Below are positions 1,102 through 1,257 of a DNA stretch of 3,161 bases, one piece after another. The DNA is taken from sequence record OR845352.1. The stretch is one strand, 5' to 3'. Position 1 is the first letter of the stretch; every line of letters begins with the position of its first letter. Origin of the DNA: Escherichia phage ECO95 1-6-1. The notes beneath the pieces were generated by a model that was not told the DNA's origin, ran no database searches, and worked only from the letters and a program-made list of their open reading frames with translations. The translations under genes were made by a program, and so were the position numbers.

Positions 1102-1173
1102 GGGTCAGTCGTATAAAGGTCATTACGGAAGGCTGTTAACCTTCTTATCGTGGTTCGAGTCCACGCTGTCCCG
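1102..1173 (+). tRNA. tRNA-Asn (anticodon GTT), 72 nt, no encoded CCA
   Basis: Manual cloverleaf: acceptor 1102-1108 GGGTCAG with 1166-1172 CTGTCCC (one U-U mismatch at pair 4-69); D-stem GTAT/TTAC; anticodon stem GAAGG/CCTTC (1128-1132 / 1140-1144); anticodon loop CTGTTAA; T-stem CGTGG/CCACG with loop TTCGAGT; discriminator G at 1173 followed by ACA, not CCA. Anticodon loop and T-loop match E. coli tRNA-Asn as I recall it. Confidence 0.6.
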
Positions 1174-1181
1174 ACAAACAT

Positions 1182-1257
1182 GCTGGTTTAGCTCCAATGG
1201 TAGAGCAGTCGCCTTGTAAGCGAATGGGTAGCGGTTCAAGTCCGTTAACCAGCACCA
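1182..1257 (+). tRNA. tRNA-Thr (anticodon TGT), 73 nt plus encoded CCA
   Basis: Manual cloverleaf: perfect 7-bp acceptor GCTGGTT (1182-1188) with AACCAGC (1247-1253); TA at positions 8-9; D-stem GCTC/GAGC; anticodon stem GTCGC/GCGAA (four pairs plus one mismatch); anticodon loop CTTGTAA; 5-nt variable loop; T-stem AGCGG/CCGTT with loop TTCAAGT; discriminator A and CCA at 1255-1257. Confidence 0.7.

Follow-up and report, generated by a model that had tools for sequence, protein, structure and literature searches.

We analysed a stretch of 3,161 nt from Escherichia phage ECO95 1-6-1 (sequence record OR845352.1), referred to here as the window, and concentrated on two tRNA genes located between the late-gene control region and the lysis genes of a lambdoid prophage. 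An earlier note, made by reading the letters of the window, had described a tRNA-Asn with anticodon GTT and a tRNA-Thr with anticodon TGT, separated by 8 nt; the first was said to carry ACA after its discriminator and a U-U mismatch in the acceptor stem, and the second to end in CCA. All of these readings were borne out. Two + strand genes were called by ARAGORN, tRNA-Asn(gtt) at 1101-1175 and tRNA-Thr(tgt) at 1182-1257. The Rfam model RF00005, whose gathering score is 29, aligned along its whole length (model positions 1-71 of 71) with both genes, giving 55.3 bits for Asn (1102-1173) and 61.5 bits for Thr (1182-1254). The pair is made up of the following parts:

1102..1173, + strand: tRNA-Asn(GUU), tRNA positions 1-73, anticodon GTT at 1135-1137
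1174..1176, + strand: ACA in place of the CCA of the family (C74A at 1174)
1177..1181, + strand: spacer AACAT of 5 nt between tRNA-Asn and tRNA-Thr, read from the sequence
1182..1257, + strand: tRNA-Thr(UGU) with an encoded CCA, anticodon TGT at 1215-1217

The discriminator G73 of the Asn gene is at 1173, and eight bases (1174-1181) lie between it and G1 of the Thr gene; the spacer is 5 nt long if 1174-1176 is counted as the CCA position. Relatives have a spacer of equal length, either AACAT or AATAT. According to the Rfam alignment, the Asn gene contains two mismatches, U4·U69 (1105/1169) in the acceptor stem and U13·U22 in the D stem. In the Thr gene, a G27·A43 mismatch leaves an anticodon stem of 4 bp, and the 3′ CCA is encoded at 1255-1257. 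The conserved tRNA nucleotides U8, A14, G18G19, U33, purine 37, the T-loop UUCRA and C61 are all present in both genes, and A15 with U48 provides an alternative Levitt pair in Asn. Asparaginyl-tRNA synthetase of E. coli recognises the anticodon G34 U35 U36 and the discriminator G73; the window Asn has these identity elements, as does E. coli asnT. A permissive Rfam scan (E up to 1) of the whole window returned Asn and Thr and no third tRNA. On this result we reject a degenerate third gene in the 245-nt gap at 1258-1502, a gap that, by eye, is also unlike the Gly(UCC), Phe and Arg tRNAs of relatives.

Judged by gene order and similarity, the element is a phage 21-type late-leader tRNA module, placed after Q, pR′ and tR′ and before the lysis genes, with Asn followed by Thr across the 5-nt spacer. 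Phage 21 (OL657228, CPT_21_64 and CPT_21_65) presents the same order of Q, pR′, tR′, Asn, 5-nt spacer, Thr and lysis genes, and its record annotates the terminator, tRNA-Asn and tRNA-Thr in that order. The window at 1095-1262 is 99.4% identical to phage 21 over 168 nt, with C74A as the one difference inside the genes: Thr is identical at 76/76 positions and Asn at 72/72 through G73, and these 72 nt of Asn (1102-1173) are also the same in Sf6 and BTP1. The two phages differ in that the Asn 3′ end is ACA in the window and CCA in phage 21, that the Q protein and the promoter spacer of the window are of the Sf6 type and not of the phage 21 type, and that its lysis cassette, with a PF16080 holin, belongs to the S107/BTP1 type and not S21.

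The Asn/Thr pair is a known one, with annotations in phage 21, Sf6 (AF547987), BTP1, S107, SPN9CC, SfI and other phage and prophage records, and the locus by itself brings nothing new. The Sf6 annotation reads ‘tRNA-Asn, codon AAC; similar to phage 21’ and ‘tRNA-Thr, codon ACA’, the S107 and BTP1 records list the same pair, and the phage 21/Sf6 set has been in GenBank since about 2003. The region 1000-1500 of the window matches 171 phage records and 1369 of 5426 complete E. coli genomes, where the RefSeq annotation usually gives, in this order, ‘tRNA-Thr’, ‘tRNA-Asn’ and ‘antiterminator Q family protein’. The SfI genome paper described Asn(GUU) and Thr(UGU) as a tandem that follows Q in SfI, Sf6, ST64T, PS3 and p21 (PMC3636060). 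A scan of species-representative genome contigs gave only 6 matches, 4 of them in Enterobacteriaceae (Escherichia sp., E. albertii, Phytobacter and Shimwellia), and the viral scan for relatives not of the 21 type gave only 2 loci. The other 2 of the 6 matches (L136 and L140) are short contigs in gut metagenome-assembled genomes whose labels are Segatella copri and Collinsella sp.; their presence there is most likely due to mis-binning.

The earlier note had also suggested that this might be a tRNA cargo set different from the Ile/Arg set of the Shiga toxin (Stx) phages. Different from that set it is, but it is not new, being the annotated phage 21/Sf6 set. In 933W and related Stx phages, ileZ-argN-argO lie after Q and upstream of stx, likewise in a lambdoid late leader and likewise with tRNAs for ANN codons; unlike those of the window, they are Ile and Arg tRNAs for the rare codons AUA, AGA and AGG, and the two sets have no sequence relationship. 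The trnA-trnT pair of phage P1 has the order of the window, tRNA-Asn and then tRNA-Thr, with the genes 2 nt apart. However, the P1 genes are only 58% (Asn) and 83% (Thr) identical to those of the window, the P1 Asn has a fully paired acceptor stem and a host-like UAAUC motif, the P1 Thr keeps the CNG motif discussed below, and the pair is located in the C1-controlled ban operon region, unlike the late leader of the window.

The control region that precedes the pair consists of the following features:

520..1038, + strand: Q late-gene antiterminator, 172 amino acids, Sf6/phage 21-like (PF06530 Phage_antitermQ, 5.5e-26)
1016..1045, + strand: late promoter pR′, TTGACA, 18-nt spacer, CATAAT (11/12 consensus match)
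1054..1101, + strand: tR′, intrinsic terminator of the short late leader, predicted by folding as a hairpin at 1054-1092 followed by a U-run

Q is annotated at the homologous place in S107, BTP1 and Sf6. The promoter corresponds in the alignment to the pR′ annotated in phage 21 and Sf6; its spacer matches that of Sf6, differs from that of phage 21, and contains a direct repeat at the site of the Q-binding element of phage 21. Beginning with the transcribed leader, the sequence hardly differs from the pR′ leader and tR′ annotated in both phages. The tR′ hairpin folds with -18.4 to -19.3 kcal/mol (z = -3.4), a stability reached by none of 200 shuffled sequences, and its U-run ends one base ahead of the Asn gene. 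The pair is thus directly downstream of a Q-dependent pR′/tR′, as the earlier reading had proposed. In the Q mechanism of lambda and phage 21, polymerase starting at pR′ stops at tR′ unless it has been modified by Q. Since both tRNA genes sit right behind tR′, we infer from this mechanism that their expression is restricted to the late phase: the tRNAs would be transcribed in lytic growth only, at the head of the late transcript, from which RNase P would cut the 5′ ends and host 3′ trimming would release the other ends.

We then considered whether the unusual Asn gene is a working tRNA gene. With only 62% identity to E. coli asnT, it is by sequence a tRNA of a phage lineage and not a recent copy of the host gene. 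The U-U mismatch of its acceptor stem had been taken as a possible sign of degeneration, a view that the comparison with relatives does not uphold. In the Asn of Klebsiella-type phages (acceptor stem GGGUCGA/UCGUCCC), pairs 6-67, 7-66 and 28-42 change in a compensatory manner and U4·U69 is kept; in another diverged copy (L133, GGGUAGG/CCUUCCC), pairs 5-68 and 6-67 and the anticodon and T stems have changed, and U4·U69 is again kept. Only rare copies show U·C, U·G or G·U at pair 4-69. Because it persists in three diverged lineages amid compensatory changes, U4·U69 is, as far as these alignments go, a conserved trait of the lineage and not decay. Across 19 distinct sequences, 91.2% of the cells of the Asn cloverleaf pair in the standard way, and changes on both sides are seen in 11 of 21 pairs. 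Covariation scores 0.319, compared to 0.101 in shuffles, with 0/500 shuffles reaching the observed value; when the 3′ partners were slid by 1-3 columns as a control, only 35-51% were paired. The search patterns fixed the D arm, the anticodon loop and the variable loop, whose invariance is consequently not evidence of selection. On this covariation, together with the preservation of all bases engaged in tertiary interactions, we reject the reading of the Asn gene as a pseudogene. In Thr, pairs 3-70 and 6-67 change from U-A to C-G between the 21-type and the Klebsiella-type.

More distant relatives of this Asn were found in Mosigvirus, Gualtarvirus (T4-like) and Eneladusvirus (a jumbo phage). 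They share with the window Asn the D arm UCGUAUAAAGGUNAUUACGG with U13·U22, the 4-nt variable loop UUAU, the T loop and G73, whereas their acceptor and anticodon stems have diverged by compensatory changes and their pair 4-69 is U·G or C-G, not U·U. In two of the three, Mosigvirus and Eneladusvirus, no CCA is encoded.

Within the region, the tRNAs are the least variable stretch, with a fraction of 0.003-0.035 of positions differing compared to 0.16-0.28 in the flanks. Such uniformity could also arise if the tRNA block were kept for linking mosaic Q and lysis modules in recombination, or merely hitch-hiked, and not for the use of the tRNAs; the flanking Q/pR′ and pre-holin sequences do fall into types, and recombinant Thr genes exist that join a phage-type 5′ half to a 3′ half like that of host thrU. 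A linker, however, does not account for compensatory changes in all four helices across diverged lineages, nor for the same kind of change in virulent T4-like and jumbo phages outside this mosaic context, and the Thr tRNA is experimentally active. We regard this explanation as very improbable.

The ACA at the 3′ end of Asn is a separate matter. Phage 21, Sf6, S107, BTP1 and ST64T read CUGUCCCG-CCA where the window reads CUGUCCCG-ACA. Among the 125 copies with a readable 3′ end, taken from the IMG/VR scan and the reference loci and including the window, 122 have CCA and 3 have ACA. These three are the window itself, a contig that is 97% identical to the window over 1-2416 (L081), and a Klebsiella-type copy (L039) in which C74A is an independent event. 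Salmonella phage S.Kent 1-2-1 is 100% identical to the window over 1095-1262, so that it has C74A in common with it. Going by the distribution of the allele, the lack of CCA reflects a rare polymorphism, C74A, found in a small lineage, and not a property of the family, and a CCA-less state as a family trait, as in many T4 tRNAs, is ruled out for the lambdoid lineage. The earlier suggestion of a divergent, CCA-added or partly degenerate tRNA must be narrowed in this respect, as the lack of CCA belongs to the allele.

What C74A does to this copy can be seen in two ways: the Asn tRNA would have to be repaired, by 3′ trimming to G73 and the action of the CCA-adding enzyme, or else it would be impaired. 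Taken further, the second option becomes the proposal that the Asn gene of this prophage is a decaying allele whose ACA end serves the ribosome poorly, leaving Thr as the only working gene. C74 is paired in the P site with G2252 of 23S rRNA, every E. coli tRNA gene to our knowledge encodes CCA, ACA is confined to the three copies mentioned, and other rare damaged alleles of Asn exist, namely a 1-nt insertion, a T-arm deletion and C71A. On the other hand, T4 tRNAs without CCA are matured by RNase BN/Z and the CCA-adding enzyme, the Mosigvirus and Eneladusvirus relatives also do without an encoded CCA, C74A arose separately in the Klebsiella-type copy, and the remainder of the Asn gene is intact. 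Decay of this allele is a serious possibility, to which we give somewhat less than even weight. The copy with the insertion lies at 403-477 of an E. coli Z1323CEC0019 locus (L143), where the extra nucleotide falls in the 3′ acceptor strand (CUGGUCCC) and the RefSeq annotation of the genome lists only the Thr gene. For annotators, the CCA-less state is a point change at the level of the allele, and gene callers may skip damaged members of the family.

For the Thr gene, a function has been demonstrated in phage-versus-phage conflict. The killing by P2 Old results from two cuts in the anticodon stem of host tRNA-Thr(UGU), made at a paired CNG motif; cells are rescued from it by phage tRNA-Thr(UGU) genes, and the tRNA-Thr of phage 21 (tRNA-Thr21) protects too (PMC12445682). 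The anticodon stem of tRNA-Thr21 is shorter and carries the changes C28U/G42A (PMC12445682; NAR 2025). The window Thr, identical to the phage 21 gene, has both features, as G27·A43 and U28-A42. Its anticodon arm reads UCG/CGA and UAAGC^G, compared to CUG/CAG and UAAUC^A in host thrU (the caret lies between positions 40 and 41). The shortened anticodon stem and the absence of the CNG motif explain the resistance, and the window tRNA would replace host tRNA-Thr(UGU) destroyed by Toprim anticodon-stem nucleases of competing elements, as the identical phage 21 tRNA was shown to do against P2 Old. It is the work of 2025 on P2 Old that gives this gene a tested role. HepS of Gifsy-1 was also considered as the relevant nuclease and set aside. 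This nuclease cleaves Thr, Ile and Ser tRNAs in their anticodon loops, Thr(UGU) being a secondary target, and no evasion is predicted, as the phage Thr loop equals the host loop (CUUGUAA).

Phage tRNA genes may also serve the codon usage of the phage. Following the check proposed in the earlier note, which had named AAC/AAU and ACA in the late genes, codon usage was compared between phage S107 and a 50-kb E. coli K-12 sample, the latter as a proxy for the Salmonella host. The outcome was mixed. ACA, which the Thr tRNA would decode, occurs 15.4 times per 1000 codons in S107 and 5.5 times in the sample (p about 1e-13), that is, about three times more often, and accounts for 27% and 10.5% of Thr codons, respectively; the Asn codons are enriched only 1.4- to 1.5-fold. 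The host has four asn genes, a point that counts against a need for Asn codon supply. On these figures it could be argued that both tRNAs serve only the AT-rich late genes through ACA and AAU/AAC, with no part in counter-defence. The SfI paper reported the same ACA bias, but its authors saw no Asn bias and found the significance of tRNA-Asn not clear (PMC3636060). Moreover, AGA+AGG (13.6 against 1.7 per 1000, 8-fold) and ATA (10.2 against 2.8 per 1000, 3.6-fold) are more enriched than ACA in S107 and yet have no phage tRNA here; codon supply alone consequently explains the choice of tRNAs poorly. The identical Thr tRNA, in addition, protects against P2 Old and carries resistance changes in its anticodon stem that codon supply does not need. 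We thus consider plain codon supply an unlikely explanation of the pair.

A role of Asn as the counter-defence partner of Thr is the only remaining question of some interest at this locus. The PARIS nuclease AriB cuts beside a UAAU motif, between positions 40 and 41, in host tRNA-Lys(UUU) and Thr(UGU) and, as a secondary target, in Asn(GUU). A change of U39 abolishes the cleavage of tRNA-Lys, and host tRNA-Asn(GUU) was needed in the rescue of T5 variants from AriB. For P2 Old, too, host tRNA-Asn(GUU) is a substrate, cut at a lower rate than Thr. Host Thr(UGU) is P2 Old's primary target and a prime target of AriB, and host Asn(GUU) a secondary target of both. The window Asn reads AAG/CUU and U36AACC^U where host asnT has CGG/CCG and U36AAUC^C, and it is free of both cleavage motifs, the CNG of P2 Old and the UAAU of AriB; the shortened anticodon stem is found in Thr only, not in Asn. 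The module hence has the anticodons of the two non-Lys host targets of the nuclease family, with each of its tRNAs altered at the cleavage site. T5 tRNA-Lys, Thr and Asn acting against AriB, and phage tRNA-Thr(UGU) acting against P2 Old, are similar cases, with the anticodons of the targeted host tRNAs and substitutions at the cleavage sites of the anticodon stem; the module of the window differs from T5 in belonging to a temperate lambdoid phage and a late promoter, and not to the large tRNA cluster of a virulent phage.

By the look of its cleavage site, the Asn most likely plays the same replacement role as Thr, in which it would substitute for host tRNA-Asn(GUU) as the secondary substrate of P2 Old and AriB. 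Host tRNA-Asn(GUU) being a secondary target of this nuclease family, we tentatively put forward that the 21-type Asn is no codon-supply passenger but one of the two tRNAs of a dedicated countermeasure, Thr being the other, directed at OLD-family Toprim anticodon-stem nucleases (P2 Old and PARIS AriB) carried by competing P2/P4-type elements, although we would not give this idea even odds. If true, it would explain why lambdoid phages carry a tRNA for a codon family that is not rare, and the conserved U4·U69 and the G31-C39 stem change would be features of resistance or recognition avoidance. The purpose of Asn, unclear to the SfI authors in 2013, now has a concrete and cheaply testable hypothesis. 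A literature search found no paper that tests the 21-type tRNA-Asn.

Overall, we consider it probable that the element is a late-leader module expressed late, with a Thr tRNA that decodes ACA, with Thr and Asn as replacements for host tRNAs lost to nucleases, and with a C74A Asn that is repaired or impaired. Several points weigh against this account. The proposed replacement role of Asn is motif-based, and according to the AriB paper itself the motif does not suffice for cleavage. The primary target of AriB, tRNA-Lys(UUU), has no counterpart in the module. The Klebsiella-type Asn keeps CNG on both strands (CAG/CUG), and escape from P2 Old is therefore not general in the lineage; the Asn of P1 and that of a Providencia phage keep the host-like UAAUC. 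The C74A allele of Asn may be non-functional. To these are added the K-12 proxy behind the ACA figures and the poor match between codon enrichment and tRNA choice.

The array itself varies among relatives. In a census of about 133 loci carrying this Asn, the following arrays were found:

103 loci: Asn-Thr
8 loci: Asn-Phe-Thr, with or without Arg(UCU) and Gly(UCC) (Klebsiella-type)
8 loci: ‘Asn + Gly(UCC)’ according to ARAGORN
9 loci: Asn alone
5 loci: a different combination, or no call

Most of the ‘Asn + Gly(UCC)’ loci do contain a second tRNA, which was not called and which is a recombinant of a phage Thr 5′ half and a host-thrU-like 3′ half. In four loci (L116, L014, L139 and L105), this chimeric tRNA is located about 80-156 nt past the start of Asn; it begins with the 5′ half of a phage 21-type Thr, continues with an anticodon arm and a 3′ half that equal or nearly equal those of host thrU, the type sensitive to P2 Old, and is followed by tRNA-Gly(UCC). 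These sequences point to recombination between phage tRNA genes and host-like thrU sequence. The Asn-alone group includes some truncated contigs as well as ST64T-type loci. In ST64T-type phages (L004, at 788-856; also L098), a divergent tRNA-like element occupies the place where Thr would be; it scores 42.1 bits with RF00005, receives no ARAGORN call, and its anticodon region CCUUCCUAAGAAGG forms no normal 7-nt loop. In Klebsiella phage ST101-KPC2phi6.1 (L005, 701-1017) and in L073, the array after the antiterminator is Asn-Phe(GAA)-Thr-Arg(UCU), sometimes extended in Klebsiella lambdoid phages by Gly(UCC), and it is built on the same Asn and Thr lineages.

The rest of the window contains genes of a lambdoid phage:

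160-363: NinH (Pfam E = 1.6e-42)
1503..1706, + strand: class II holin, the first late gene past the tRNAs (PF16080, 5.6e-21), annotated as holin in S107 and BTP1
1678..2181, + strand: endolysin, a phage lysozyme with a hydrophobic N-terminus (PF00959, 1e-45)
2178..2645, + strand: Rz spanin (PF03245, 1.6e-46)
2398-2583, + strand: Rz1, embedded in Rz (PF06085, 8.7e-20)

Just upstream of the start codon of the holin (1503), an inverted repeat, CCCCUCAAUAAAGGGG, is located at 1480-1502; it overlaps the likely ribosome-binding site AAGGGGG and might modulate holin translation. The closest phage records to 1-2184 of the window are the Salmonella phages S.Kent 1-2-1 (99.9%) and S107 (99.5%). The segment after Rz (2640-3161) is AT-rich, with a GC content of 27-39%; it had no match among 50,697 phage records and is 99% identical to prophages of enterohaemorrhagic E. 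coli (EHEC) O103/O26, in which the gene that overlaps it carries the annotation PerC family transcriptional regulator. Because its first part is nearest to Salmonella phages while its last part matches EHEC prophages, the window is, on these similarities, a mosaic. Within this last segment, an open reading frame starting at 3109 (MLHDHLAECLEKKGLYR...) continues past the end of the window.

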